Below, in pieces: positions 9,070 to 27,283 of a DNA stretch of 64,000 bases. The stretch comes from an uncultured Acidobacteriota bacterium (GTDB lineage: Bacteria > Acidobacteriota > Polarisedimenticolia > J045). The notes under the pieces are model-generated. The model had not been told where the DNA came from. It ran no database searches and saw only the letters and a program-made list of their open reading frames with translations. The DNA lies in NCBI GenBank assembly GCA_964420365.1, contig CAYQTA010000094.1, forward strand, positions 100,514 to 164,513, read 5' to 3'. Made by a program: the position numbers and the translations under genes. How positions within the stretch are numbered: the first letter of the stretch is position 1; each line of letters begins with the position of its first letter.

Positions 9070-9851
9070 CAGCCGATCACCTCCAGGAGCTCCTTCGCCT
9101 TCTCCGCCCACGTGGACCCGGGCGCGAGCTCGAGGACACGGCGCAGGTGCCCGGCCGCCTCGTCCATCCTTCCCGCGCGGAACAGGGCCGAGCCCCATTC
9201 GTACAGGAAGAGCGGGTCGTCGGGAAACCCCGGGGCGGCCACGCCGTACTCCGCGAGCGCCTCGTCGGCCCGGCCGAGTTCCTCGAGCAGGCGCGCGAGT
9301 TCCCAGTGTCCCCGGTAGTACTGGGGGCGCACCTCCACCGCGCGCCGCAGGTCGGCGAGCGCCAGGTCGGTGCGCCCCATCCGCTTCTCGATCAGCGCCC
9401 GGTTCAGCCAGATCTTTTCCGGGAAGGCATAGGCCCGGTTGGCGAGGGCCCGGGTGAGAACATCGATCGCCTCCCGGGGACGCCCCAGCTTCTCGAGACA
9501 GGTGGCGAGGAGCATGCTCGCGTCGGTGTACCCGGGATTCGCCTCGAGGGCGCGCCGGAACGCCCGGGCCGCGTCCTCCCAGGCCTCCCGGCTCCAGTGG
9601 ACGTAACCCTCGTAGTAGTAGAGCACGGGGAGGATCTTCGCCTCCCGCCCCGCCATCCGGATCGCCTTCCGGATCTCCTCGAGGGCGAGGGGGGCGTTCC
9701 CCTGCTCGAAGTAGGCCTGGGCCAGCTTGTAGTGCTGCAGGGGCCCGTCCTTCGGCGGCGGCGACTCCGCGGGCCCGGGAGTGGCGCACCCGGGCGCCAG
9801 GAGCGCCGCCAGCAGCACCGCCGCGGCCAGGATCGAACCCGGCTTCCGCAT
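9069..9851 (-). CDS. TPR-repeat lipoprotein (BamD/PilF-like architecture; function unassigned)
   Basis: C-terminal 260 aa of ORF 9069..11342: MRKPGSILAAAVLLAALLAPGCAT (signal peptide plus lipobox Cys), followed by several TPR-like helical repeats. ATG at 9851. Confidence 0.7.
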   Translation of the reverse strand: MRKPGSILAAAVLLAALLAPGCATPGPAESPPPKDGPLQHYKLAQAYFEQGNAPLALEEIRKAIRMAGREAKILPVLYYYEGYVHWSREAWEDAARAFRRALEANPGYTDASMLLATCLEKLGRPREAIDVLTRALANRAYAFPEKIWLNRALIEKRMGRTDLALADLRRAVEVRPQYYRGHWELARLLEELGRADEALAEYGVAAPGFPDDPLFLYEWGSALFRAGRMDEAAGHLRRVLELAPGSTWAEKAKELLEVIG

Positions 9852-15871: not shown

Positions 15872-17410
15872 ATGACCTCGAGACTCCGGTCGTTCGTCGT
15901 TCCGCTGCTGCTGGTTTCCCTCGTCGCGCTGCCGGCGTCCGTCACCGCCCTTGCCGGCAACGACGACCTGGACGCGATCGTCACGCGCCTGGGATCGGCG
16001 AGCATGCGGGACCGGATCATGGGGCTCCGGGACATGATGCGGCTCAAGGTCCCGGCGGAGAAGGCGCGGCCGATCCTCGAGAAGATGATCCAGGACCCCA
16101 GCGCCGAGGTCCGGGCCGAGCTGGTCTGGACGATCTACGAGCTCCTCGGTGGAAAGGGAGCGGACCTGCTCGAGAAGCTGTACGCCGACCCGGACCACAA
16201 GGTCCGCGACGGCGCGCTGCGGGCCGCCTGCCGGATGTGGGACGTCCCCGACGCCCGGGACCTCTGCCGGGCCGGGATGGACGACCCCGATCACCGGGCC
16301 CGCATCGAGGTGATCAACACGCTGAAGGAGTTCTTCCCCCACGACCCGGAGGCCGCCGCCCTCTTCCGCAGGGGGCTCCAGGACCCGTCCGAGATGGTCC
16401 AGCGCTCGGCGGTGTTCGGGGCCCAGGCGGCCCGTGACCCCGAGGCGGTACCCCTCCTGGCCAGGGTGCTCCGGGAGTCCAGCGACCTGGCGGCGGTTCC
16501 CGCGGCGGACGAGGCCCTGGCGACGATCGGCACCGACGAGGCCGTCGACGTGCTCGTCTCCGTGCTGCCCCGCCCCAAGGGCGAGCCGGGCAAGCCGGCC
16601 AGGCCGACCGACGCGGTGCGTGCGGCGGCCGCGCGGGCCCTCGCCCGGATCCGCAACCCGAAGGCCCTCCCCGCGCTCCGGAAGGCCCTCGACGACCCGT
16701 CCCTGATCGTTCGGCTCGGCGCGATGGAGGCGATCCTCCAGATGAAGGACCGGAAGGCCGCTCCCCTCGTCTGCCGGCAGCTGGGCGACAAGGAGGAGCG
16801 GATCCGCCGTTTCGCCCTCCGCGTGCTCCACCAGCTGGGCGACACGACGTGCCTCGACAGGATCCGGGACATGATGTTCCACGACCCGGTCCCGACGATC
16901 CGTGCGACCGCCACCGTCACCTACGCGGACCTGGTCGGCGAGAAGGCGATTCCCGACCTGCTCAAGCTCCGCGAGGACCTGGACTGGTCCGTCCGCCTGG
17001 AGGCGGCCGGCAGCCTGGCCGGCCTCGGGAAGCCGGCCGCGAAGGCCCTCGCGGAGTTCCTCGAGGACACGAACGCGGACGTCCGCGCCATGGCGATCAC
17101 GGGGCTGGGCCAGATCGGCGGTCCGGACCAGGTTCCCGCCCTCGCCCGGCTGATCACCGACAAGGGCAAGAAGAACCGCCAGGTCCGCATGGCGGTGGCG
17201 GAGGCCCTCGGTTCGATCGGCGGCGCGGAGGGTGTCCCGGTCCTCGCCGAGCTGGCGGCGGACCCGGACCCGGCCGTTCGCCAGCGGGCGGCAACGTCCC
17301 TCGGTCGGATCGGGGGGGCGGAGGCCCGCAAGACCCTCGAGGTCCTGGCGAAGGACCGGGTCCCCTCGGTGCGGCGCGCCGCCAGGACCGCCCTCGAATC
17401 CATGAAGTAG
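15872..17410 (+). CDS. Secreted HEAT-repeat (PBS-lyase-type) protein
   Basis: From the ATG at 15872 (ribosome-binding site AGGAGGAAG) in ORF 15290..17410: MTSRLRSFVVPLLLVSLVALPASVTALA (signal peptide), then about 12 repeats of the ...DPDxxVRxxAxxALGxIG... type. Confidence 0.75.
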   Translation: MTSRLRSFVVPLLLVSLVALPASVTALAGNDDLDAIVTRLGSASMRDRIMGLRDMMRLKVPAEKARPILEKMIQDPSAEVRAELVWTIYELLGGKGADLLEKLYADPDHKVRDGALRAACRMWDVPDARDLCRAGMDDPDHRARIEVINTLKEFFPHDPEAAALFRRGLQDPSEMVQRSAVFGAQAARDPEAVPLLARVLRESSDLAAVPAADEALATIGTDEAVDVLVSVLPRPKGEPGKPARPTDAVRAAAARALARIRNPKALPALRKALDDPSLIVRLGAMEAILQMKDRKAAPLVCRQLGDKEERIRRFALRVLHQLGDTTCLDRIRDMMFHDPVPTIRATATVTYADLVGEKAIPDLLKLREDLDWSVRLEAAGSLAGLGKPAAKALAEFLEDTNADVRAMAITGLGQIGGPDQVPALARLITDKGKKNRQVRMAVAEALGSIGGAEGVPVLAELAADPDPAVRQRAATSLGRIGGAEARKTLEVLAKDRVPSVRRAARTALESMK

Positions 17411-17430
17411 GGGCGGCCGGCAGGCCGCCC
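17411..17430. terminator. Bidirectional hairpin between the convergent HEAT-repeat gene and the TPR/sulfatase-like gene
   Basis: GGGCGGCC-ggca-GGCCGCCC is a perfect 8-bp GC stem with a 4-nt loop, immediately after the TAG stop at 17408..17410. No strong U-tract follows. Confidence 0.45.
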
Positions 17431-17520
17431 GCGGGTGCCGGGCGCGCGCGGTGCCGTCGTGCGCGTTTGCCGGATGATGCGCGGTGCGACGCGCCGCCCG
17501 GGCCGGCTCCCGGGGGGACC

Positions 17521-19971
17521 CTACTGGACGTAGCCGAGGCCGCGGAGGCGTTCGAGGGTCTCCTCGTCCACCTGCTCCTCCGCGACGCCGAGACGCGATC
17601 TCGTCTTCGCGGCGGCCGCGAGGTGATCCCGGACCAGTTCCCGCATCCGCGCGAGGTCGCGGGGACGGCGGCGGGCCAGGTCGCGTCGCTCCCCCGGGTC
17701 GTCCCGCAGGTCGAACAGCAGTTCCCGCGTCCCGCCCGCGGTCTCCCGGGCCACGTACTTGAGCGAGCCCCGCCAGGCCGCGTGGAGCGGTTCCCCGCCG
17801 AAACCGATCGCCTCCGCGAACACGGGGCGTGAACCGCAGCCCGCCCCCGACCAGCACGGAACGAGGCTCCGCCCGTCACCGAGGCGATCCGCCACCCCGA
17901 CGAGATCGAGCACCGTGGCCGGCACGTCGATGCCGGAAACCGTCTCCTCCACGACCTTTCCCGCGGGAACGCGCCCGGGCCAGGAAACGATCAGCGGAAC
18001 GCGCGTGACCTCCTCGAACAGGGTGTCCCCGTGGTCGAGGAGACCACGCTCGAAGAGCTCCTCCCCGTGGTCCGCGGTGACGACGACGAGGGTCTGCTCC
18101 CGGAGGCCCTGCCGGTCCAGCTCGTCGAGCAGGGAACCGACCAGCGTATCGGCCCAGGCGAGCTGGCCGTCGTAGAGATCCCGGAAGGCCCGGGCATCCG
18201 ACGGCGCCGCCGGGAAGATGCGGGTGTGGAAGCGGTAGTACTCGCTGATCGGTACGAGGGCCTCCGGCCAGGCGAAGCCGACGTGGTCGGCGGCCGCGAA
18301 CCGGAGCCGGAATTCCCGCGGCGCGTGGTACGGCTGGTGCGGGGCGTAGGTGTGCACGAACAGGAACCAGGGCCCGCGCCCCCCGTGACGAGCGAGCTCG
18401 GCGAGGGACGCCGCCGCCGTGCCCGGCAGCGAGTGCCGCCCATCGTAGCGATAGACGTCGAACCCCTGGGAGAAGCCGAACCGGGGCGAGACCCACGCGT
18501 TCTCGGTGACGGCCACCGTCCGGAAGCCATGCTCCCGGAGCACCTCCGCGAGCATGGTCTCCCGGCCGGACCCGCGAACCCTGAGCCGCTGGTCCGGGTG
18601 CAGGTACCCGTGGAACGCCCCGAGGTCGGGCAGCACGCCGTGGGCCGCCGGCGTGTAGCCGCTGAAGAGGGAGTAGTGGGACGGCAGCGTCCAGTTGGAG
18701 GCCGCCTCCGCGCGGGCGAACCGGGCTCCCTCCCGGGCGAGGGCGTCCAGGCGGGGCGTCACCGGGCGCGGGTTCCCGTAGCAGCCGAGCCGGTCGGCCC
18801 GGGCCGTGTCGAGGGACACGAGCAGGACGTTCGGCTTCCTGTCGGCGCTCCGCCTTGCCGGGTCCGGGAGGACCCGCGGTACCGAGAACCCGGCGCCCGC
18901 CGGGGCGGGCCGGCGAAGGAGGCCGGCGAGGAAGCCGGCGGCCCGGACCTCGAACCTCACCGACGTGTCTCCCGTCCCGCCCGGAAGCGTGACCTCGTGG
19001 GGAACGAAGACCCCCCGGGAAGCATCCCCCGCGTGGACGACGTCGAGCACCGTCCTGCCGCCGGCGGTCACGAGGAAGCGCGCCCGGTTCCCGGCCGGAG
19101 CGAGGCAGGCGAACACGAGGGTGCTGCCCGCGGGAACGCGGAGCTCCGCCGGCAGGTCCTCGAGAAGTGGTCGCCACTCGACGCCCGTGTCCCGCTCGAC
19201 GGGAGGCAGCTCTCCCGGGGGCTCCTCGAACGCGCCCTCCCGCCGCAGCCGGGCCTCGTACAGCCGGGCGAACTCCCGCCGGGCCCGCGCGGCAACGTCC
19301 GTTCGCCCGAGGCGCTCCGCGGCGCCGAGCGCCTGGTACCAGCCCTCCAGGTGATCCGGGTTGGCCCGCGTGGCCGCGAGGAACTCCTCGAGAGCATCCC
19401 CCTCCCGGCCCTCGGCGAGCAGAAGCAGCCCCAGGTGATAGTGGGGAGGCGCGTATTCCCGCCCCAGGTCGCGGGCCGTCTCGATCGACCGTTCCAGGTA
19501 CGCCCGTGCCCGGGCCCGGTCCCCGGCAAGCAGGGCCGAGTAGCCCGCCAGGTTCAGCACCCGCGGGTCCGGACCGACGAGCGGCTCGAGAACCGCGAGG
19601 GCCTCCCGGGGCCGGCCGAGGGTTCCGAGCAGCTTCCCGAGGGCGATCGCCACCTCCCGGTCCCGCGGGTGGGTGGCCAGGTGGGCCCGGTACCAGGAAG
19701 CCGCCTTCCCGGGCCGATCGAGCGTCTCGGCGACCCGGCCGGCGAGGAGGACCAGCCGCGCGTCCCCGCTCTCCGCCGCCCCCGCGAGGTCGGCCACCGC
19801 CTCGTCGGAACGGTCCGGGTGCTCGAGCCAGAACGAGGCTCGCTGCTCCCAGGTCGCGTTCCGGGGCGGCATGGCCCGCGGGGCCGTGCCCTTCTCCCCG
19901 CACCCGGTCCAGGCGACGAGCAGCGCGGCCAGGAACAGGACGGCCAGCGCTGGCAACCGACGACGCATCAT
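17521..19971 (-). CDS. Lipoprotein with N-terminal TPR domain fused to a sulfatase-like (alkaline-phosphatase superfamily) domain
   Basis: C-terminal 816 aa of ORF 17521..20256, from MMRRRLPALAVLFLAALLVAWTGC. It has TPR-like repeats, then ...VLLVSLDTARADRLGCYGNPRPVTPRLDALAREGARFARAEAASNWTLPSHYSLFSGYTP...VVTADHGEE (sulfatase fold). The position normally occupied by the formylglycine C-x-P-x-R reads T-L-P-S-H. ATG at 19971 overlaps the prmA stop. Confidence 0.8.
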   Translation of the reverse strand: MMRRRLPALAVLFLAALLVAWTGCGEKGTAPRAMPPRNATWEQRASFWLEHPDRSDEAVADLAGAAESGDARLVLLAGRVAETLDRPGKAASWYRAHLATHPRDREVAIALGKLLGTLGRPREALAVLEPLVGPDPRVLNLAGYSALLAGDRARARAYLERSIETARDLGREYAPPHYHLGLLLLAEGREGDALEEFLAATRANPDHLEGWYQALGAAERLGRTDVAARARREFARLYEARLRREGAFEEPPGELPPVERDTGVEWRPLLEDLPAELRVPAGSTLVFACLAPAGNRARFLVTAGGRTVLDVVHAGDASRGVFVPHEVTLPGGTGDTSVRFEVRAAGFLAGLLRRPAPAGAGFSVPRVLPDPARRSADRKPNVLLVSLDTARADRLGCYGNPRPVTPRLDALAREGARFARAEAASNWTLPSHYSLFSGYTPAAHGVLPDLGAFHGYLHPDQRLRVRGSGRETMLAEVLREHGFRTVAVTENAWVSPRFGFSQGFDVYRYDGRHSLPGTAAASLAELARHGGRGPWFLFVHTYAPHQPYHAPREFRLRFAAADHVGFAWPEALVPISEYYRFHTRIFPAAPSDARAFRDLYDGQLAWADTLVGSLLDELDRQGLREQTLVVVTADHGEELFERGLLDHGDTLFEEVTRVPLIVSWPGRVPAGKVVEETVSGIDVPATVLDLVGVADRLGDGRSLVPCWSGAGCGSRPVFAEAIGFGGEPLHAAWRGSLKYVARETAGGTRELLFDLRDDPGERRDLARRRPRDLARMRELVRDHLAAAAKTRSRLGVAEEQVDEETLERLRGLGYVQ

Positions 19972-20852
19972 GGCCCCTCCTCCGCCCGGGCCAGGAGCAG
20001 GGCGGCCCACTCGCCCTCGCTCCGGGCGGTGACGCGGCGGAATCCCCGGGACGTCCAGGCCTCGGTGACCCGGTCCACGTCCTCCGGGGAAAACCCGGAG
20101 AGGATCGCCCGGGCTCCCGGAACGAGGTGGTTCGCCAGGGGCCCCGCGCCGCGGACCAGGGCCGTGCGGTGAACGTTGGCGAGCAGCAGCTCGAAGCGGG
20201 CACCGGGGCCGAGGACGCCCCAGCTCCCCGCGGCCACCGCGACCCGGGCTCCGCACCGGTTCCGCAGAACGTTCCCGCGGGCCACCTCGAGCACTCCCGG
20301 GTCGTCGTCGAGCGCGAGGACCGCCGCCGCGCCGAGAAGGGCCGCCCCGATGGCCAGGATGCCGGAACCCGTACCGAGATCGAGGACCCGGTCTCCCGGT
20401 TCCAGCACGTCACCGAGAAGCTCGAGGCACATCCGCGTCGTCGCGTGTTCCCCGGTGCCGAAGGCCCGGCCCGGCGGCAGGAGGACCGGGACGCGCGGAT
20501 CCTCCCGGGGCACGTCCCCCGGGTCGCTGACGACGACGAACCTGCCCGCCGGGATCGGGTCCCTCGGACCGAGGGACGCCTCCAGCCAACCGGGGTCGGC
20601 GATCGCCGCGGGCCCCTCCGGGTCCACGGCCCACGACGGGAGGTCCCTCGCGAACCGGGCGGCATCCGCCTGCCGGTCGAACCACGCGGTCACCCGCAGC
20701 CGACCCGGCCCGGCGGGGCGGCCTTCCGTGCCCCGGGCCCCGGCCGCCCAGGCGAGCCCGGCCCAGCCGTCCTCCCGGTCGACCGGGACCACGGCCGCGA
20801 CCCGGAACCAGCGACCGGGCAGGCGCGTCGGGGGATGCCGGTCCCCGGCCAT
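19968..20852 (-). CDS. prmA: Ribosomal protein L11 methyltransferase
   Basis: 294 aa: ...FGTGEHATTRMCLELL...VLDLGTGSGILAIGA (SAM-binding motif). It sits downstream of dnaJ as in many bacteria. Confidence 0.85.
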   Translation of the reverse strand: MAGDRHPPTRLPGRWFRVAAVVPVDREDGWAGLAWAAGARGTEGRPAGPGRLRVTAWFDRQADAARFARDLPSWAVDPEGPAAIADPGWLEASLGPRDPIPAGRFVVVSDPGDVPREDPRVPVLLPPGRAFGTGEHATTRMCLELLGDVLEPGDRVLDLGTGSGILAIGAALLGAAAVLALDDDPGVLEVARGNVLRNRCGARVAVAAGSWGVLGPGARFELLLANVHRTALVRGAGPLANHLVPGARAILSGFSPEDVDRVTEAWTSRGFRRVTARSEGEWAALLLARAEEGP

Positions 20853-20855
20853 GGA

Positions 20856-22064
20856 CTACTCCTCCCCGTCCGGGGAGGCCTCCCCGGTAGCAACCTGGTC
20901 CGGCTCCCCGGCGCCCCCCCCGCGCCCGCGGAAGAACCGGCGCACGCGGTCGAGGATCCCGTCGCCCTCCCGGTGCCGGGCCAGCCGCTCGTGTTCGAGT
21001 TCCCTGAGGCGCTCCCACAGCTCGCGCTCCCGCGCCGGCACCTTTCGTGGCGGCCGGGCCACCAGGTGCACGACGTGGTCTCCCCGGCCCCGCCGCCCCA
21101 GGCGCGGCACGCCCCGTCCCCGGAGCCGGAGCGTGGTCCCGGGCGCCGTCCCGGGGGGCACGTCCACCGTCTCGGTCCCGTGGAGAGTCTCCACGGTGAG
21201 ACGGGCGCCCAGCACGAGGTCGGCGAACCCGACCTCGAGTTCCTGGTGCACGTCCGCCCCCTCCCGCCGGAGAACCGGGTGCTCCCGGACGCGGATGTCG
21301 ATGTAGAGATCCCCCGGGGGACCCCCGGATCTTCCCGGTTCCCCCTCGCCGGCGACCCGCAGGCGCGTGCCGTCGTCGACGCCGGCCGGGACGGCCACCC
21401 GGACGGTACGCTCGACCTCCACGTGACCCCGGCCCCGGCATTCCCGGCACCGCTCCCGGACGACCCGGCCCTCGCCGCCGCAGGCGGGACAGGTGTGGGC
21501 CATCTGCAGGAAGCCGGTCCGAACGATCACCCGGCCCTGTCCCCCGCAGGTCCGGCAGGTGACGATTCCTCCCGGCGCGGCTCCCGAGCCCCCGCACGCC
21601 GGGCACGGCTCCCGGCGCCGGATCGTCACCGAGGTCTCCGTGCCGAAGACCGCCTCCTCGAACTCCACCTCCAGCGTCGTCCGGAGATCGCTCCCCCGCC
21701 GGGGCCGCCCCCGGCCCCGGCGGCGGGACCCGCCCATGCCGGTCCCGAAGAGCTGCTCGAACAGGTCCTCGAGCCCGAACGCTCCCCCGAACGAGCCGAA
21801 GACCTCCTCGAAGATCGACGGGTCGAAGGCCGGGGGACCGTCGAAACCCTCGGCCCCGTACCGGTCGTAGCGGGCCCGCTTCTCCGGGTCGGAGAGGACT
21901 CCGTACGCCTCCGCCAGTTCCTTGAACCGTTCCTCGGCATCCTCGAGGTCCGGGTTGCGGTCCGGGTGCAGCTCGAGCGCGCGGCGCCGGTAGGCCCGCT
22001 TGATCTCCTCCTGGCTCGCGTCGCGGGAGACGCCGAGGATCGCGTAGTAGTCCTTGCCGCTCAC
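20856..22064 (-). CDS. dnaJ: Chaperone DnaJ
   Basis: ORF 20856..22178. J-domain KDYYAILGVSRDASQEEIKRAYRRRALELHPDRN, a Gly/Phe-rich region, and four CxxCxGxG zinc-finger repeats. I chose the GTG at 22064, which gives VSGKDYY... The ATG at 22178 would add 38 non-conserved residues. Confidence 0.9.
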   Translation of the reverse strand: MSGKDYYAILGVSRDASQEEIKRAYRRRALELHPDRNPDLEDAEERFKELAEAYGVLSDPEKRARYDRYGAEGFDGPPAFDPSIFEEVFGSFGGAFGLEDLFEQLFGTGMGGSRRRGRGRPRRGSDLRTTLEVEFEEAVFGTETSVTIRRREPCPACGGSGAAPGGIVTCRTCGGQGRVIVRTGFLQMAHTCPACGGEGRVVRERCRECRGRGHVEVERTVRVAVPAGVDDGTRLRVAGEGEPGRSGGPPGDLYIDIRVREHPVLRREGADVHQELEVGFADLVLGARLTVETLHGTETVDVPPGTAPGTTLRLRGRGVPRLGRRGRGDHVVHLVARPPRKVPARERELWERLRELEHERLARHREGDGILDRVRRFFRGRGGGAGEPDQVATGEASPDGEE

Positions 22065-22122
22065 GGGGCGTGAGTCTAGCCCCTCGGCGGGGCCCCGCCC
22101 ACCGACCGCCGGGGGGCCGCGG

Positions 22123-23940
22123 TCAGAGGGCGGACGGATCGTAGAGGGCCACCTCCGCCAGCTGGCGCGCCACGCCACCCAGGGCCTCGAGGGCCTGGCG
22201 AACCTCCTCGGGATCGCTCCCGGCCAGCGCGGCCCGGCAACGGGCGAAGACCTCCTGGATCTCCTCCTTCTTCTCGGCCGCGAGGAGGTCCCCGAACTCC
22301 TGGAACGTCTTTTCGTTCGTCTCGAGGAGCCCCTCGAGACGGGCCCGGTTCCGGGCGGCGGCGATCCGCTTCCGGTCCTCCTCCGCGTACGCCTCCGCCT
22401 CCGAGATCGCCCGCTCGATCTCCTCCGGCGAGAGCCCGGAGGTCGGCGTGACCACGACCTGCTGCTCGAGACCGGTGGCCCGGTCCCTGGCCGACACGGA
22501 GACGATCCCGTTGCTGTCGATGTCGAACGTCACCTCGATCTGGGGCGTCCCCTTGGGGGCGGGCGGGATCCCGACGAGCTCGAAGCGCGCGAGGCTCTTG
22601 TTCGCCGACGCCAGCTCGCGCTCGCCCTGGAGCACGTGGATCTCGACCTTCGTCTGGTTGTCCGCCGTCGTCGTGAAGACCAGCGTCCGGCGGCAGGGCA
22701 CCGTGGAACCCCGCTCGATCATCTTGATGAACCGGTCGCCCCGGACCTCGACGCCGAGGGAGAGCGGGGTGACGTCCAGCAGGACGATCTCCTTGACGTC
22801 GCCCCGGAGGATTCCCGCCTGGATCGCGGCACCCAGGGCGACGACCTCGTCCGGGTTCACCTGCCGGTTCGGCTCGCGACCGAAGATCCCGGTCACCACC
22901 TGCTGGACCAGCGGGGTGCGGGTCTGGCCCCCGACCAGGAGCACGTCCGCCACCTGGTCGGCCGTGATGCCCGCCATCTCCAGGGCCTCCTCGCACGGCT
23001 TCCGGGTTCGCTCGACCAGGTCGCGGACGAGATCCTCGAAGGTCGCCCGGTCGAGGGTCCGGTTGAAGTGCACCGGCCCCTTCTCCGTCGTGGCGAGGAA
23101 CGGCAGCTGGATCTCGGTGACCTCCTCCCGGGAAAGCTCGATCTTCGCCTTCTCTGCCGCCTCCTTGAGGCGCTGCAGCGCGAGGCGGTCCTGGAGCGGA
23201 TCGAGGCCGGTCTCCTTGCGGAAGATGTCCGCCATCCAGTGGATGATCTTCTGGTCGAAGTCCTCGCCGCCGAGGAACGTGTCCCCGGCGGTCGCCAGGA
23301 CCTCGAAGACCCCCGCCGCGAGGCGCAGGATCGAGATGTCGAACGTGCCGCCACCGAGGTCGTAGATCGCGATGATCTTCTCGCCCTCGTCCTCCGCGAG
23401 CCCGTAGGCCAGCGCGGCGGCGGTGGGCTCGTTGAGAATGCGCAGGACGTTCAGGCCGGCGATCCGGCCGGCGTCCCGCGTCGCCTGCCGCTGGGCATCG
23501 TCGAAGTAGGCCGGCACGGTGATGACCGCGTCCTCGACCTTCTCCCCGAGGTAGTCCTCGGCCAGGTCCCGCAGGTGAGCGAGGATCGCGGCGGAGACCT
23601 CCTGGGGACTCAGCACCTTCCCCCCGGTCTCGACATGGGCGTCGCCGTTGTCCGCCGCCACGATCCGGTACGGAACGTGGCGCGCCGCCTGCTCGACCTC
23701 CGCGTCGGACCGCTTGCGACCGATCAGCCGCTTGATCGCGTAGAAGGTGCCCTCCGGGTTCGTCGCGGCCTGGCGCTTGGCGAGGGAACCGACCAGGCGC
23801 TCCCCCCGCCGCGAGAAGGCGACCATCGAGGGAACGGTGTGGCTCCCCTCCTTGGTGGGGATCACGACCGGCTGGTCCCCCTCCATCACCGCCACCACCG
23901 AGTTGGTCGTTCCCAGGTCGATCCCGATGATCCTGCCCAT
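22123..23940 (-). CDS. dnaK: Chaperone DnaK (Hsp70)
   Basis: 605-aa C-terminal part of ORF 22123..25293: MGRIIGIDLGTTNSVVAV...DLGGGTFDISIL...VLLVGGQTRTPLVQ... ATG at 23940. Confidence 0.97.
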   Translation of the reverse strand: MGRIIGIDLGTTNSVVAVMEGDQPVVIPTKEGSHTVPSMVAFSRRGERLVGSLAKRQAATNPEGTFYAIKRLIGRKRSDAEVEQAARHVPYRIVAADNGDAHVETGGKVLSPQEVSAAILAHLRDLAEDYLGEKVEDAVITVPAYFDDAQRQATRDAGRIAGLNVLRILNEPTAAALAYGLAEDEGEKIIAIYDLGGGTFDISILRLAAGVFEVLATAGDTFLGGEDFDQKIIHWMADIFRKETGLDPLQDRLALQRLKEAAEKAKIELSREEVTEIQLPFLATTEKGPVHFNRTLDRATFEDLVRDLVERTRKPCEEALEMAGITADQVADVLLVGGQTRTPLVQQVVTGIFGREPNRQVNPDEVVALGAAIQAGILRGDVKEIVLLDVTPLSLGVEVRGDRFIKMIERGSTVPCRRTLVFTTTADNQTKVEIHVLQGERELASANKSLARFELVGIPPAPKGTPQIEVTFDIDSNGIVSVSARDRATGLEQQVVVTPTSGLSPEEIERAISEAEAYAEEDRKRIAAARNRARLEGLLETNEKTFQEFGDLLAAEKKEEIQEVFARCRAALAGSDPEEVRQALEALGGVARQLAEVALYDPSAL

Positions 23941-24488
23941 CAGCCTCGCTCCTCGTCGTCCCGGTCGGCCCTTTCCGGCTCGACGGAGACCCGCACCAGC
24001 GCGGGCCGCACCAGGTCTCCCGCCAGCAGGTAGCCCACCCGCAGCACCTCGAGGACGGTCCCGGGAGGTACCCGGTCGGTCGGCGTGGTCTCCGCCGCCT
24101 CGTGGATCCGCGGATCGAAGGGGAGCCCGTCGCCCTCGATCCGCTCGAGGTCGTGGGGCCGGAAGACGTTCCACAGGGACCGCAGGGCGAGACGGACCGC
24201 CTCTTCCATCTGGTCCCGGTCCGGGCGCTGCCGCACGCACTGTTCCAGGGCGTCCAGGGCCGGCAGGATCTCCCGCAGGGCCTGGCGGATTCCCTCCTTG
24301 CGTCCCGCCTGCCGGTGCCGGTGGAGAACCGGTTCGGGCCGCGGTGCCGCCGGGGCCGGCGCGGCATCGGCGAGGTCGATCTCGACGGAGTCCTCCTCCC
24401 CGCCGGGATCCACCGGGCCGGTGTCCCCCACGGGAATGATCTCCAGGATCTCGAGCTCGCCACCCTCGTCCGGCGGGCGCTTCGCCAT
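23940..24488 (-). CDS. grpE: Nucleotide exchange factor GrpE
   Basis: ORF 23940..24524, from internal MAKRPPDEGGELEILE... with a GrpE C-terminal domain ...ERIEGDGLPFDPRIHEA...VLEVLRVGYLLAGDLVRPALVRV. Its stop overlaps the dnaK ATG. Confidence 0.85.
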   Translation of the reverse strand: MAKRPPDEGGELEILEIIPVGDTGPVDPGGEEDSVEIDLADAAPAPAAPRPEPVLHRHRQAGRKEGIRQALREILPALDALEQCVRQRPDRDQMEEAVRLALRSLWNVFRPHDLERIEGDGLPFDPRIHEAAETTPTDRVPPGTVLEVLRVGYLLAGDLVRPALVRVSVEPERADRDDEERG

Positions 24489-24641
24489 GGAACCTCCTCG
24501 TCGTCGTCCCCCGCCCGCGGGCACGCCACGGGCAGGGAGGCGGCACCTCCCCCGTGGTCAAGGTATAGGTCCCGCTCCCCCGGCGTGCACGGTCCCCCCG
24601 CGGGCCCGGGCGGACCACGCCGAACCGGGACGGAACCCGCT

Positions 24642-25743
24642 TCAGGAGGAGGGTCGGCCCCGGGAGAGGAGCCAGGCCTTCATGAACGGGGTCAGGTCGC
24701 CGTCGAGTACCCGGTCGACGTCCCCCATGTCGAGGCCCGTGCGGTGGTCCTTGACCATCCGGTAGGGAGCGAGGACGTAGGAGCGGATCTGGCTGCCGAA
24801 GTCGATCTGCTTCTTCTCGCCCGCCTCCTTGCGCCGCTGCTCCTCCCGCTCCCGGAGGGCGCGCTCGTAGAGACGGGCGCGCAGGATCCGGAACGCCTTT
24901 TCCCGGTTCCGGTGCTGGCTGCGCTCGTCCTGGCAGGAAACGACGATCCCGCTGGGCAGGTGGGTGATCCGAACGGCGGAGTCGGTGACGTTCACGTGCT
25001 GCCCGCCGGCCCCGGAGCTGCGGAAGGTGTCGATCCGAAGGTCCTTGTCGTCGATCTCGATCTCGATCGTGTCGTCGACCTCGGGGATCACGTCCACCGA
25101 GGCGAAGGCGGTGTGGCGCCGCGCCGCGGCGTCGAACGGGCTGATCCGGACCAGCCGGTGGACTCCGCGTTCCGCCTTCAGCCAGCCGTAGGCATCGGGG
25201 CCGATCACGCGCACCGTCGCGCTCTTGATCCCGGCTCCCTCCCCCTCGAGCCGGTCGACGAGCTCGGTCCGGTAACCCTGTCGCTCCGCCCACCGGAGGT
25301 ACATCCGGAGCAGCATCTCGGCCCAGTCCTGGGCATCGACCCCCCCGGCCCCGGGGTGAATGCTGAGGATGGCGTTCCGGTGGTCGTCGTCCCCGGACAG
25401 CATCATCGAGACCTCGACGTCGGCGATCGCCCGGTCGAGGTCCTCGAGGGCCTCGGCGAACTCCTCGTCGACCGTCTCGCCCTCCCGGTCCAGCTCCAGG
25501 AGGGTTCGGGCATCGTCGAGCAGCCCGAGGAGGCGCTTCGCCCGGTCGCGCCGGGCGACGGCCTCGGCCCTCTCCCGGTTCAGCTCGGCCGCCCGGTCCG
25601 GGTCGTCCCAGACCGAACCGTCCGCCATCTGCTTGTCGATCTCGGCGATTCGCCGCTCCAGGTCGGCCGTGTCAAAGGTACCCCCTGAGCGGGTTCGCCC
25701 GCTCTTCGAGGCCCTGCCAGCGCTCGAGGAGATCGTCACGCAT
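24642..25743 (-). CDS. prfB: Peptide chain release factor 2, with programmed +1 ribosomal frameshift (join 25743..25675 and 25673..24642)
   Basis: Frame 1 (ORF 25672..25854, from internal ATG at 25743) reads MRDDLLERWQGLEERANPLRGYL*. Frame +1 (ORF 24642..27557) continues DTADLERRIAEIDKQ...RISPFD (SPF motif)...SGAGGQHVN (GGQ). The shift site AGGGGG TAC CTT TGA C is the canonical RF2 autoregulatory site. Confidence 0.9.
25671..25686 (-). promoter_or_regulatory. prfB: prfB +1 frameshift cassette (internal SD-like AGGGGG, then slippery CTT, then TGA C)
   Basis: Minus-strand sequence AGGGGG-TAC-CTT-TGA-C is read directly from 25686 down to 25671. It is identical in logic and nearly identical in sequence to the E. 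coli prfB site. Confidence 0.85.
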
Positions 25744-27283
25744 CTTCGGTGCCGTCCTTGTCGGTTCCGGGAAGGGGCGCCAAGCCGGCCCGCCACCGCG
25801 GACCACGCCCCGGGATGGCGGCGAGGAGGAGCGCCACCGCGGCGAGTGTAACACAGGCGAACTCGAGGGCCCGGGCGACGAGCCCTCCGACGGGTAGCCC
25901 GCCGCCGGCCCGGACCCGCGCGACCAGGATGCCGCGCGCGCCGATCCCGAGCCGGCCGAGCACCCGGCCCCGCCCGTCGACCAGGAGGGAGATCCCGCTG
26001 TTCGCCGCCCGGAGGAGCGGCCGACCGGTCTCCGCCGCCCGCAACCTCGCGTGGGCCGCGTGCTGGAGGGGCCCGGACGAGTCCCCGAACCAGGTGTCGT
26101 TGGTCAGGTTGACCAGGATGCCCGCCCCCGCGCGGGCGAGCCCCAGGGAAAGCCCGGGAAAGACCAGCTCGTAGCAGACCAGCGGACCGAGCGGCCCCGA
26201 CCGGGACGGCAGGAGCACCTGGTCCTTCCCCGGAACGAAGTCCCCGGCCTCGGCGGCGATCGCCGGGACGTCGCCGAGCAGCGGCCGGAGCGGCAGGTAC
26301 TCGCCGAACGGCACGAGGCGGCGCTTCGGCGCGATGCCCGCGACCCCGGTGTCGGCGCGAACCAGGACCGCGCTGTTGTAGCGGCCGCCCCCCGGCGCGC
26401 CGGTCACGCTTCCGAGGACGAGATCGATCCCCAGGTCCCGGGCGAGAGCCTCGATCCGGGCCCGGAACCCCGGGGCCTCGTCGATCCGCCACGGAACCGC
26501 CGATTCGGGCCAGGCGACGAGCGCGGCCCCTCGATCCGCGGCCTCCCGCGCGAGGGCCTCGTAGACCACGAGGCGGGCGAGGGCGCCCCGTCCCTCCGGG
26601 ACACTCCCCTGGACGACCGCGACCGTCACTTCCCTTCCGCGGGGACCGGGCAGGAGGGTACCCGCCAGGCCCACCAGCAGGGTCGCCGCCCCGAGCGCGA
26701 CGACGGGACCGTGCCGCGGCCGGGCCCCGGCAACCCGCGCGGCGAGGAGGGCGGCCCACGCGATCCCGAGGAACCCGAGCCCCGCCCCCCCGACCAGCCG
26801 GGCGACGGCGATCCCCCCCGGGACCGAGGCCAGCGCGACGCCGGCGGAGCCCCAGGGAAACGGGAACGGAAACGCCTCCCGGGTCCACTCGAGGGCGATC
26901 CAGAGGGGAGGGCCGGCGAGGAGCGCCCGGACCGGTGACCAGCGACGCGCGAGGCGCGCCAGGACCCAGGCGAGGCACCCGGTCCCGATCCCTTCCAGGG
27001 CCCCCGAGAGCAGGACCGCCGCGAGGACCGCCGAACCCGGGAGCGGGGTATGAACGAGAAGCACGAAACCGAACCACCGGAGCAGCAGGCCGTAGAAGAT
27101 CGCCCCGGCAAGCCATCCCTCGCCGAACGCCCGCCGTGGCGCGGCCGTCACCGCCAGGACGAGAAGCAGGGCGGCGCCCGGCACGGTGAGCAGTCCCCAG
27201 CCGGGGCGGGGGTGCGCGAGGGCGAGAAGGACGCCGGCCAGGGAGGCGAGAACCACCCGGGCCGGGCCCGGGAGGCGGCTCAT
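25736..27283 (-). CDS. lnt: Apolipoprotein N-acyltransferase
   Basis: 515 aa with N-terminal multi-pass membrane segments and a C-terminal CN-hydrolase domain (...VAWPESAVPW...ALVCYELVFP...). Its 3' end overlaps the prfB ATG by 8 nt, and its start overlaps the SPOR gene stop (ATGA). Confidence 0.85.
   Translation of the reverse strand: MSRLPGPARVVLASLAGVLLALAHPRPGWGLLTVPGAALLLVLAVTAAPRRAFGEGWLAGAIFYGLLLRWFGFVLLVHTPLPGSAVLAAVLLSGALEGIGTGCLAWVLARLARRWSPVRALLAGPPLWIALEWTREAFPFPFPWGSAGVALASVPGGIAVARLVGGAGLGFLGIAWAALLAARVAGARPRHGPVVALGAATLLVGLAGTLLPGPRGREVTVAVVQGSVPEGRGALARLVVYEALAREAADRGAALVAWPESAVPWRIDEAPGFRARIEALARDLGIDLVLGSVTGAPGGGRYNSAVLVRADTGVAGIAPKRRLVPFGEYLPLRPLLGDVPAIAAEAGDFVPGKDQVLLPSRSGPLGPLVCYELVFPGLSLGLARAGAGILVNLTNDTWFGDSSGPLQHAAHARLRAAETGRPLLRAANSGISLLVDGRGRVLGRLGIGARGILVARVRAGGGLPVGGLVARALEFACVTLAAVALLLAAIPGRGPRWRAGLAPLPGTDKDGTEDA

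Follow-up and report, generated by a model that had tools for sequence, protein, structure and literature searches.

Predicted lipoprotein gene directly follows prmA

The window analyzed here is a 64-kb stretch of DNA from an uncultured Acidobacteriota bacterium (contig CAYQTA010000094.1), with a G+C content of about 74%. On its minus strand, downstream of grpE, dnaK, dnaJ and prmA, lies a gene at 17521-19971 whose 816-amino-acid (aa) product combines a predicted lipoprotein signal, a TPR-like solenoid, a beta-sandwich and a catalytic domain of sulfatase fold, in which threonine occupies the position of the sulfatase nucleophile. Sequence and structure searches, together with a comparison of related loci, point to an exported enzyme of phosphoryl transfer rather than to a sulfatase. 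The gene and its modules are as follows.

17521-19971 including the stop codon, minus strand: whole gene, encoding a TPR, beta-sandwich and Thr-type sulfatase-fold lipoprotein (open reading frame [ORF] and translation, reading frame from G+C at third codon positions [GC3], Pfam, AlphaFold2 [AF2]).
19974-19983, minus strand: Shine-Dalgarno-like GGAGGAGGGG, candidate ribosome-binding site within the 3' end of prmA (read from the sequence).
19900-19971, minus strand: predicted signal peptide and lipobox, aa 1-24, with Cys24; the start ATG lies in the ATGA overlap (sequence, homologue alignment).
19240-19851, minus strand: TPR-like helical solenoid, aa 41-244, 12 helices (AF2 secondary structure and Pfam).
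18856-19209, minus strand: jelly-roll beta-sandwich, aa 255-372, resembling carbohydrate-binding modules (CBMs), with no Pfam match.
17677-18840, minus strand: alkaline-phosphatase-superfamily catalytic domain with the sulfatase (PF00884) fold, aa 378-765 (Pfam, phmmer against the PDB, Foldseek).
17524-17664, minus strand: C-terminal helix and tail, aa 770-816, with conserved L809-x-x-L812-G813-Y814 (AF2, alignment of relatives).

The longest minus-strand ORF spans 17521-20256. A longer N-terminus starting from the GTG at 20256 (a 911-aa ORF) was considered and rejected: the extra stretch is prmA coding sequence, orthologues all begin at the signal peptide, and in the GC3 phase analysis the prmA frame gives way to the lipoprotein-gene frame at about 19970. 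The start ATG (19971-19969) shares bases with the prmA stop TGA (19970-19968), and a second ATG follows it. The overlap reads as ATGA at 19971-19968, as described in an initial annotation of this gene made from the letters alone.

The N-terminus, MMRRRLPALAVLFLAALLVAWTGC, ends in Cys24 and is laid out as a basic n-region, a hydrophobic core and the sequence A-W-T-G-C24. Each of the 28 aligned homologues with coverage at this point keeps Cys24. Every orthologous locus encodes a signal peptide with a Cys, in most of them within a canonical L-[AS]-[GA]-C. A signal peptide that closes with a lipobox and its invariant Cys predicts a lipoprotein, and on this point and on the extent of the gene the initial annotation agrees with the ORF, the GC3 frame and the conserved Cys24.

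An AF2 model built from 32 homologues had a pLDDT (predicted local distance difference test) of 89.9 and a pTM (predicted template modeling score) of 0.88 over the full protein; the AF2 models of the architecture are confident (pLDDT 89.9 and 94). The signal helix (aa 8-23) is the only membrane-type helix in the model. Matches to Pfam TPR_8, TPR_14, TPR_16 and TPR_2 lie at aa 72-207, within the helical solenoid, and the beta-sandwich has its strands at aa 275-368 in a module of about 100 aa. The TPR region had earlier been put at about 350 aa. It is closer to 200 aa (helices at 41-244), and residues from about 255 to 372 form the separate beta-sandwich. The window holds no second copy of the gene; the sole trace is a weak TPR similarity at 9153-9572 on the minus strand. 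The similarity, to the lipoprotein's N-terminal domain, is 32% across 145 aa and suggests another TPR protein nearby.

Sequence and fold place the catalytic domain near S1 sulfatases and phosphonate monoester hydrolases

The catalytic domain matches PF00884 over the entire profile (aa 380-693, all 301 profile positions; 160.1 bits, with the cut-off at 25, E = 1e-46), which assigns it by sequence to a broad fold family that includes Thr enzymes of the LtaS/EptA type. Its closest solved sequence in a phmmer search of the PDB is an S1 sulfatase (7stt, 5.6e-28), with choline sulfatase at about 1e-23. Foldseek returned a choline sulfatase as the best match (6g5z, 6.4e-22), then other S1 sulfatases and phosphonate monoester hydrolases (PMHs), with no LtaS or EptA structure among the top 50.

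More specific NCBIfam models all scored below their cut-offs. The highest were choline sulfatase TIGR03417 (136.7 bits against 433.45) and arylsulfatase NF010322 (131.1 against 481); PehA NF045661, a phosphonate monoester hydrolase of class S1_0, scored 83.7 against 900. The transferase models scored lower still: MCR-12, 30.9 bits against 1200; EptA, 23.1 against 561; CptA, 20.2 against 404; and LtaS, 16.7 against 970. The LapC/YejM match was weak (25 bits, far under a cut-off of 825). No NCBIfam model covers the Thr-type clade described below. In the profile comparison that the initial annotation had suggested, PF00884 scores 160.1 bits and the EptA and LtaS models 23.1 and 16.7.

A second Pfam family, PF01663 (NPP), scored 48.9 bits against a cut-off of 23, yet its best stretch is limited to profile positions 1-62 of 342. 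The matching segment, aa 382-446, is the first 65 residues of the domain and includes the nucleophile segment; the Xanthomonas NPP 2gsn was also matched at 7.7e-7. Full-length membership in PF01663 was rejected on account of this partial match; PF00884 accounts for the whole domain far better.

By descent the catalytic domain appears to belong to the sulfatase/PMH branch, apart from the membrane-bound transferases. Only its active-site residues, and not the domain as a whole, look like those of EptA or NPP enzymes. The initial annotation had placed the protein nearer to transferases and PMHs than to sulfatases. This stands for the active-site residues, which are EptA/NPP-like, and does not stand for the whole domain, which hidden Markov models and Foldseek put nearer to S1 sulfatases and PMHs. 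Its appeal to PMHs as a likeness for a Thr nucleophile also falls, because PMHs use formylglycine and provide no precedent for one (PMC5066984).

Active-site residues depart from those of sulfatases

Four predicted active-site motifs are as follows.

18796-18810, minus strand: predicted first metal-ligand motif D388-T389-A-R391-A (DTxRA), in which T389 replaces the second Asp of sulfatases (alignment to 'aDDlg' of 7stt).
18676-18690, minus strand: predicted nucleophile motif T428-L-P-S-H432, where sulfatases have the C-x-P-x-R formylglycine motif (alignments to 6ust, 7stt and arylsulfatase A [ASA]).
18337-18354, minus strand: H540-T-Y-A-P-H545, in which H545 corresponds to His201 of the choline sulfatase BetC and H540 is specific to the Thr clade (alignment to choline sulfatase).
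18031-18072, minus strand: D634-H635-G-E637-x9-H647, predicted second metal-ligand pair and His (BetC alignment, hhalign to EptA).

Aligned with solved sulfatases (for example 'vCSPSR' in 6ust), T428 falls at the position of the formylglycine Cys and H432 at that of the motif Arg, so the earlier reading of T-L-P-S-H at this position, with His for Arg, is borne out by 6ust and 7stt. Ungapped extension of the ASA alignment puts E490 and A492 at ASA Lys123 and His125, and H647 aligns with the Lys of 'GLWFK' in BetC, replacing a sulfate-binding Lys. Among ASA Arg73, Lys123, His125, His229 and Lys302, only the equivalent of His229 (H545) is kept; the others are H432, E490, A492 and H647. Compared with the calcium site of sulfatases (three Asp plus Asn, Gln or His), D388, D634 and H635 are present and the second Asp is T389.

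We also considered an S1 sulfatase whose formylglycine motif lies elsewhere in the protein, a possibility raised in the initial annotation. The only other match to [CS]x[PA]xR is S663-W-P-G-R in the C-terminal subdomain, outside the active-site helix, and its Ser is found in just 7 of 32 homologues; with this Ser not conserved and no other match in the protein, the candidate was rejected. Thr cannot yield formylglycine, and Thr-bearing members of PF00884 are not regarded as sulfatases (PMC5066984). Because T428 stands at the Cys/formylglycine site, the Arg, both Lys and the second Asp are replaced, and no alternative motif exists, the protein is very unlikely to be a sulfatase. It probably carries a Thr-based phosphoryl-transfer site.

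The S1 sulfatases (BetC; 6g5z, 6fny, 7stt and 6ust; ASA, 1auk) nevertheless remain the best matches in both sequence and structure. They share with the window protein the two-subdomain fold, the first metal Asp, the D-H metal pair, the His at H545 and the D-H-G-[DE]-x9 spacing to Lys or His. The differences are Thr428 for Cys/formylglycine, His432 for Arg, Thr389 for the second Asp, Glu490 for ASA Lys123, Ala492 for ASA His125 and His647 for the BetC Lys, to which the window protein adds His540, the TPR and beta-sandwich modules and the predicted lipoprotein anchor. The PMHs (SulfAtlas S1_0; 2vqr, 2w8s, 4uph), also among the best fold matches, show that a sulfatase scaffold can carry out phosphoryl rather than sulfuryl transfer; they retain the formylglycine nucleophile, with basic residues in place of a second metal, where the window protein has Thr and a cluster of His.

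Residues resembling those at this site occur in two other groups of the superfamily. The nucleophile motif of NPP enzymes is T-F-P-N-H-Y-S, which T-L-P-S-H-Y-S of the window protein resembles. The zinc site of NPPs consists of two Asp, one His and the nucleophile, and sulfatases hold calcium by three Asp plus Asn or Gln (PMC11677397). In composition, the predicted site formed by D388, T428, D634 and H635 matches that of NPPs, and the likeness to the PF01663 profile extends over the N-terminal 65 residues. The remainder, including the C-terminal subdomain, is sulfatase-like, and the putative second site has three His in place of the Asp and two His of NPPs.

The other group comprises EptA and MCR-1 and, more distantly, LtaS and OpgB. 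In MCR-1, Zn1 is bound by Glu246, Thr285, Asp465 and His466, and His395 and His478 contact phospho-Thr285 or a second zinc (PMC5216409). The D-H-G-E-x9-H spacing of the window protein equals that of MCR-1 (D465-H466-G-E468-x9-H478). Comparison by hhalign with EptA of E. coli K-12, the sequence used for the EptA/MCR-type profile comparison, aligned the DHGE and the His (probability 92%, E = 5.5e-7). This alignment covered only the C-terminal half, so matching T428 with the Thr of EptA depends on the alignments to sulfatases and NPPs. The window protein thus appears to combine the Thr nucleophile with the Asp-His-Gly-Glu-x9-His pattern of phosphoethanolamine transferases and shares with EptA/MCR-1 an acidic residue, Thr and Asp-His as metal ligands. 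It differs from them in having no multi-helix membrane domain, in its first ligand (Asp, not Glu) and in its overall proximity to sulfatases. LtaS and OpgB, in turn, have a T-x-N-x-E nucleophile motif (PMC5066984) in place of T-L-P-S-H, and a membrane domain that the window protein lacks.

Along the sequence, H540, H545 and H647 are ordered like the second zinc site in alkaline phosphatase and NPPs, where ligands beyond the central strand are followed by one beyond the Asp-His pair, and like His395 and His478 of MCR-1. We therefore infer that these three His make up a second metal site or, alternatively, a cluster that binds phosphate.

Thr-type site recurs across a wide clade

Close full-length homologues (46-85% identity) are confined to metagenome-assembled genomes of Acidobacteriota. 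Distant relatives, 30-45% identical in the catalytic domain, occur in Thermoanaerobaculia, Planctomycetota, Myxococcota and other deltaproteobacterial lineages, Binatia, Gemmatimonadota and others, and many of them have the TPR domain at the C-terminus instead of the N-terminus. An exhaustive search of 1.84 billion cluster representatives yielded 22,383 sequences at E <= 1e-30, a level that no solved sulfatase would reach on the same scale.

Residues were examined in 264 relatives, comprising the best 150 of the 22,383 and 120 earlier matches. H635 is present in all 264, and the remaining predicted catalytic residues are nearly as constant: H647 in 263; D388, T428 and D634 in 262 each; H545 in 260; H540 in 248; E637 in 246; and T389 in 235. 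H432, the replacement for the sulfatase Arg, is found in 194. D388, T428, H540, H545, D634, H635 and H647 are invariant in the 32 close homologues, as are four acidic residues, E490, E638, E641 and E654. E490 is specific to the close family and occurs in 53 of the 264.

Public annotations name relatives 'arylsulfatase A-like' or 'choline-sulfatase'. Judged by the residue pattern, thousands of such database labels are almost certainly wrong. With a sulfatase scaffold and residues of NPP/EptA type, the clade lies between two branches of the alkaline phosphatase superfamily and offers a test case for switching of nucleophile and metal in evolution. One metagenomic relative (P0072) has the DTLRAD and DHGE-x9-H of the clade yet carries S-T-P-S-R at the nucleophile position; this Ser-type, formylglycine-like motif may represent a transitional form between Thr-type and sulfatase-type sites.

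The C-terminal tail is conserved across the clade to the same degree as the catalytic residues. Its L-x-x-L-G-Y motif (aa 809-814; 17530-17547, minus strand) retains G-Y in all 242 relatives that cover it and L812 in 229 of these, and 79 of the 264 relatives continue beyond the motif into a TPR domain longer than 100 aa. In the monomer AF2 model, pLDDT is low at aa 811-816, and the tail is probably flexible. In choline sulfatase and PMH oligomers, a C-terminal arm serves in oligomerization and completes the active site, in choline sulfatase by reaching into that of the neighboring subunit. The L-x-x-L-G-Y tail may be a comparable oligomerization or active-site-completing element or, alternatively, a ligand of the TPR domain.

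Linkage to the dnaK operon is conserved in an acidobacterial lineage

Upstream of the lipoprotein gene, the window encodes the following genes and candidate promoter element.

24561-24569, minus strand: CCTATACCT, -10-like element in the prfB-grpE spacer, candidate operon promoter, the only exact CCTATAMMT match in the 64 kb.
23940-24488, minus strand: grpE, first gene of the unit in the window (PF01025).
22126-23940, minus strand: dnaK, which shares 1 nt of its start with the grpE stop (TGATG) (HSP70, E = 8.9e-233).
20856-22064, minus strand: dnaJ, with a GTG start, 61 nt after dnaK and 3 nt before prmA (DnaJ, DnaJ_C and the CXXCXGXG zinc finger in Pfam).
19968-20852, minus strand: prmA (ribosomal protein L11 methyltransferase), with a 4-nt overlap with the lipoprotein gene (PF06325, E = 1.8e-43).

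Successive spacings from grpE through dnaK, dnaJ and prmA to the lipoprotein gene are -1, 61, 3 and -4 nt, and prfB and lnt lie further upstream. An orthologue stands directly after dnaK-dnaJ-prmA in 15 GTDB species-representative genomes of Acidobacteriota and in another three assemblies or metagenome contigs. The order lnt-prfB-(hrcA)-grpE-dnaK-dnaJ-prmA-lipoprotein gene is kept in relatives; hrcA comes first in most orthologous loci and is absent between prfB and grpE in the window and in locus L001. Across 46-85% protein identity, the first start codon before the signal peptide lies -11 to +46 nt from the prmA stop, mostly at -4. No orthologous locus has an insertion between prmA and the lipoprotein gene. 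On the 3' side of the gene, inserted genes that differ between loci (aminotransferase, M49 and M3 peptidases, outer-membrane protein) take up as much as about 6 kb before the next conserved gene. Spacings, Pfam calls and this recurring junction support the earlier placement of the gene at the end of the grpE-dnaK-dnaJ-prmA unit, and the neighborhood comparison that the initial annotation had recommended finds the dnaK-dnaJ-prmA-gene order in 15 species representatives.

The coupling had been called unusual, which holds for part of the arrangement. In Bacillus subtilis, the operon hrcA-grpE-dnaK-dnaJ-prmA(yqeT)-yqeU-yqeV has the same grpE-dnaK-dnaJ-prmA order and tight spacing, so prmA after dnaJ is already known; the lipoprotein gene is the new and unusual addition. 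The acidobacterial unit differs in that a predicted exported lipoprotein enzyme, rather than rsmE/mtaB, follows prmA, no CIRCE operator was found and hrcA is absent from the unit in the window. We regard the arrangement as a conserved yet lineage-restricted extension of the dnaK operon, and its product as a new variation on the alkaline phosphatase superfamily.

In most orthologous loci, the element CTTG(C/A)-N17-18-CCTATAAAT lies between prfB and hrcA/grpE (L005, L006, L012, L014, L016, L018, L019 and L028). The window and its closest relative retain just the CCTATACC half, and no such CTTG/CCTATAAAT element occurs inside prmA. Promoters of RpoH type in alpha-proteobacteria have the form CTTG-N17-CCTATNT, which the element before hrcA/grpE resembles. 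A sigma-70 promoter scan of 17000-26000 found none, and an intrinsic-terminator scan of the same region gave three terminator-like sites against 1.8 expected; at 74% G+C these scans are uninformative. The RNA fold of the spacer 3' of the gene is not more stable than that of shuffled sequence (z = -0.6), and therefore no terminator was called there. The ATGA overlap leaves no intergenic DNA for a promoter or terminator between prmA and the lipoprotein gene. Given this 4-nt overlap, the conserved junction and a promoter-like element found only before grpE/hrcA, co-transcription and translational coupling with prmA are the most economical reading, and the gene probably belongs to the dnaK transcription unit. 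In the 61-nt dnaK-dnaJ spacer, a 14-nt G+C palindrome without a T-tract, GGCGGGGCCCCGCC (22086-22099, minus strand), could form a stem-loop that modulates read-through into dnaJ, prmA and the lipoprotein gene.

Alternatively, the position might have no functional meaning, the gene being carried along in a stable syntenic block and expressed mainly from a promoter of its own within prmA. Synteny across the lineage extends over the surrounding 15-20 kb, and two homologue clades function without such linkage. A second-clade paralogue is located elsewhere in four of the same genomes, and the Mor1 homologue is likewise unlinked. An internal promoter is also conceivable; the consensus scan matches nothing anywhere at this G+C content. 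This explanation fits poorly, however, with a locus that admits insertions of up to 6 kb 3' of the gene and none between prmA and the gene, with a junction held between -11 and +46 nt in all loci over so wide a range of protein identity, and with a conserved promoter-like element found only before grpE/hrcA. We consider it unlikely.

A candidate phosphoryl-transfer enzyme of the cell envelope

These results lead us to propose, with moderate confidence, that the gene encodes a four-module periplasmic phosphoryl-transfer enzyme as the last cistron of the chaperone operon: a lipid-anchored, exported metallo-phosphoesterase or phosphotransferase with a Thr nucleophile, co-expressed with the chaperones. 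D388, T428, D634 and H635 would form metal site A. Thr428, activated on this metal, would attack a phosphoester, most likely a diester, and the His cluster or a second metal would stabilize both the leaving group and the phosphoryl group in transfer. The covalent phospho-Thr428 intermediate so formed would be resolved by water, as in a hydrolase, or by an acceptor, as in a transferase; among catalytic readings we favor the hydrolase as fairly likely. The TPR solenoid would bind a partner, and the TPR and CBM-like modules together would select the partner or a polymeric envelope substrate. A phosphorylated envelope glycan or lipid head group is a tentative and rather doubtful suggestion for that substrate, and we treat the 'envelope-modifying' role put forward in the initial annotation as a hypothesis. 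As the last cistron, translationally coupled to prmA, the gene would on this proposal be made whenever the chaperone operon is expressed.

Several observations weigh against parts of this proposal. The lipobox of the window protein has an atypical Trp at -3. That H540, H545 and H647 would gather around T428 is deduced from their order and from homology. Heat induction, or co-regulation under heat shock, is assumed from operon content, and the CIRCE operator (TTAGCACTC-N9-GAGTGCTAA) has no match in the window at up to three mismatches. Allowing up to four mismatches, no orthologous locus has one, although hrcA heads the operon in most; the sole match among 89 scanned sequences is at an unrelated locus (L059, four mismatches). 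The region is also broadly syntenic in this lineage (lnt-prfB-hrcA-grpE-dnaK-dnaJ-prmA-gene, then HEAT, pgsA-like and cinA), so that the linkage could partly reflect inheritance rather than selection. Clustering of neighbors at 88 loci revealed recurrent gene neighbors only in the close acidobacterial family and none among 54 distant loci. Finally, literature searches for the TLPSH/TLPAH motif, TPR-sulfatase fusions and Thr-type sulfatase-fold enzymes yielded no paper on the clade and no biochemical data for its members.

A different catalytic reading is a phosphotransferase resembling EptA, OpgB or LtaS, which would move phosphoethanolamine or phosphoglycerol from a phospholipid via Thr428 to an envelope glycan or protein, with the lipid anchor replacing the transmembrane domain. 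The Thr nucleophile and DHGE-x9-H match EptA/MCR-1, the acidic residues invariant in the close family (E490, E638, E641 and E654) could bind an amine head group, and a lipoprotein anchor with a CBM-like module would fit a membrane-proximal enzyme acting on glycans. Yet every characterized transferase of this kind has a multi-helix membrane domain, which is missing here, the signal-peptide helix being the only one of its type in the AF2 model. The EptA, CptA, LtaS and MCR models score 16-31 bits against cut-offs of 404-1200, the overall fold is nearest to soluble hydrolases, and E490 is kept in just a minority of the wider clade (53 of 264). A phosphotransferase of this type therefore seems improbable to us.

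The protein might instead be a non-catalytic or regulatory member of the alkaline-phosphatase fold, as has been argued for YejM/PbgA/LapC, with the TPR and beta-sandwich modules acting as a periplasmic scaffold or sensor. The weak LapC/YejM match (25 bits) and the recurrent TPR fusion, which is N-terminal in the window protein but C-terminal in 79 of the 264 relatives, would suit a protein centered on protein-protein interaction. The YejM score is far under the cut-off of 825, however, and near-total conservation of the predicted catalytic residues across distant phyla is what an active enzyme would show, which makes a non-catalytic role highly unlikely. A genuine sulfatase with an unconventional nucleophile is scarcely credible: S1 sulfatases are the best sequence and fold matches and relatives bear sulfatase labels in public databases, but formylglycine is not obtainable from Thr (PMC5066984), the sulfate-binding Arg, both Lys and one of two His are replaced, and the NCBIfam sulfatase models score far under their cut-offs (137 against 433 and 131 against 481).

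If the preferred reading of a chaperone-linked phosphoryl-transfer enzyme is true, the conserved, coupled placement would constitute an unusual hard-wired link from the cytoplasmic chaperone response to an exported envelope enzyme, and heat shock would be a concrete condition under which to seek its substrate. More speculatively, the protein could represent a very widespread sulfatase-fold class, with up to about 22,000 clusters at 50% identity nearer to it than any solved sulfatase, in which a Thr nucleophile and a His-rich, NPP-like two-metal center have taken the place of formylglycine and the sulfate-binding Lys and Arg. Its acidobacterial version, a lipoprotein with TPR and glycan-binding-like modules, would have entered the DnaK operon so that proteotoxic or heat stress triggers removal or transfer of envelope phosphoesters; we hold this wider picture to be a long shot. 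Either a binuclear Thr site on a sulfatase scaffold or a stress-linked envelope function would, if true, raise the significance of the gene.

Neighboring genes

Two features flank the 3' end of the lipoprotein gene.

17411-17520, no strand assigned: 110-nt spacer to the convergent HEAT-repeat gene, at the end of the transcription unit (GC3 frame plot, Pfam).
15872-17410, plus strand: convergent gene for a HEAT-repeat protein of 512 aa (HEAT_2, E = 1.6e-67).

In 17 loci the HEAT-repeat gene is a conserved neighbor on the downstream side, separated by between 24 nt and 6 kb. On the upstream side, prfB products are called at 311 to 366 aa among relatives (loci L001, L003, L005 and L008), a spread that could stem from the programmed +1 frameshift of RF2 or from the calling of starts. 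The gene for apolipoprotein N-acyltransferase, lnt, lies at 25736-27283 on the same minus strand, five genes upstream of the lipoprotein gene; its nearness to a lipoprotein gene may be coincidental.

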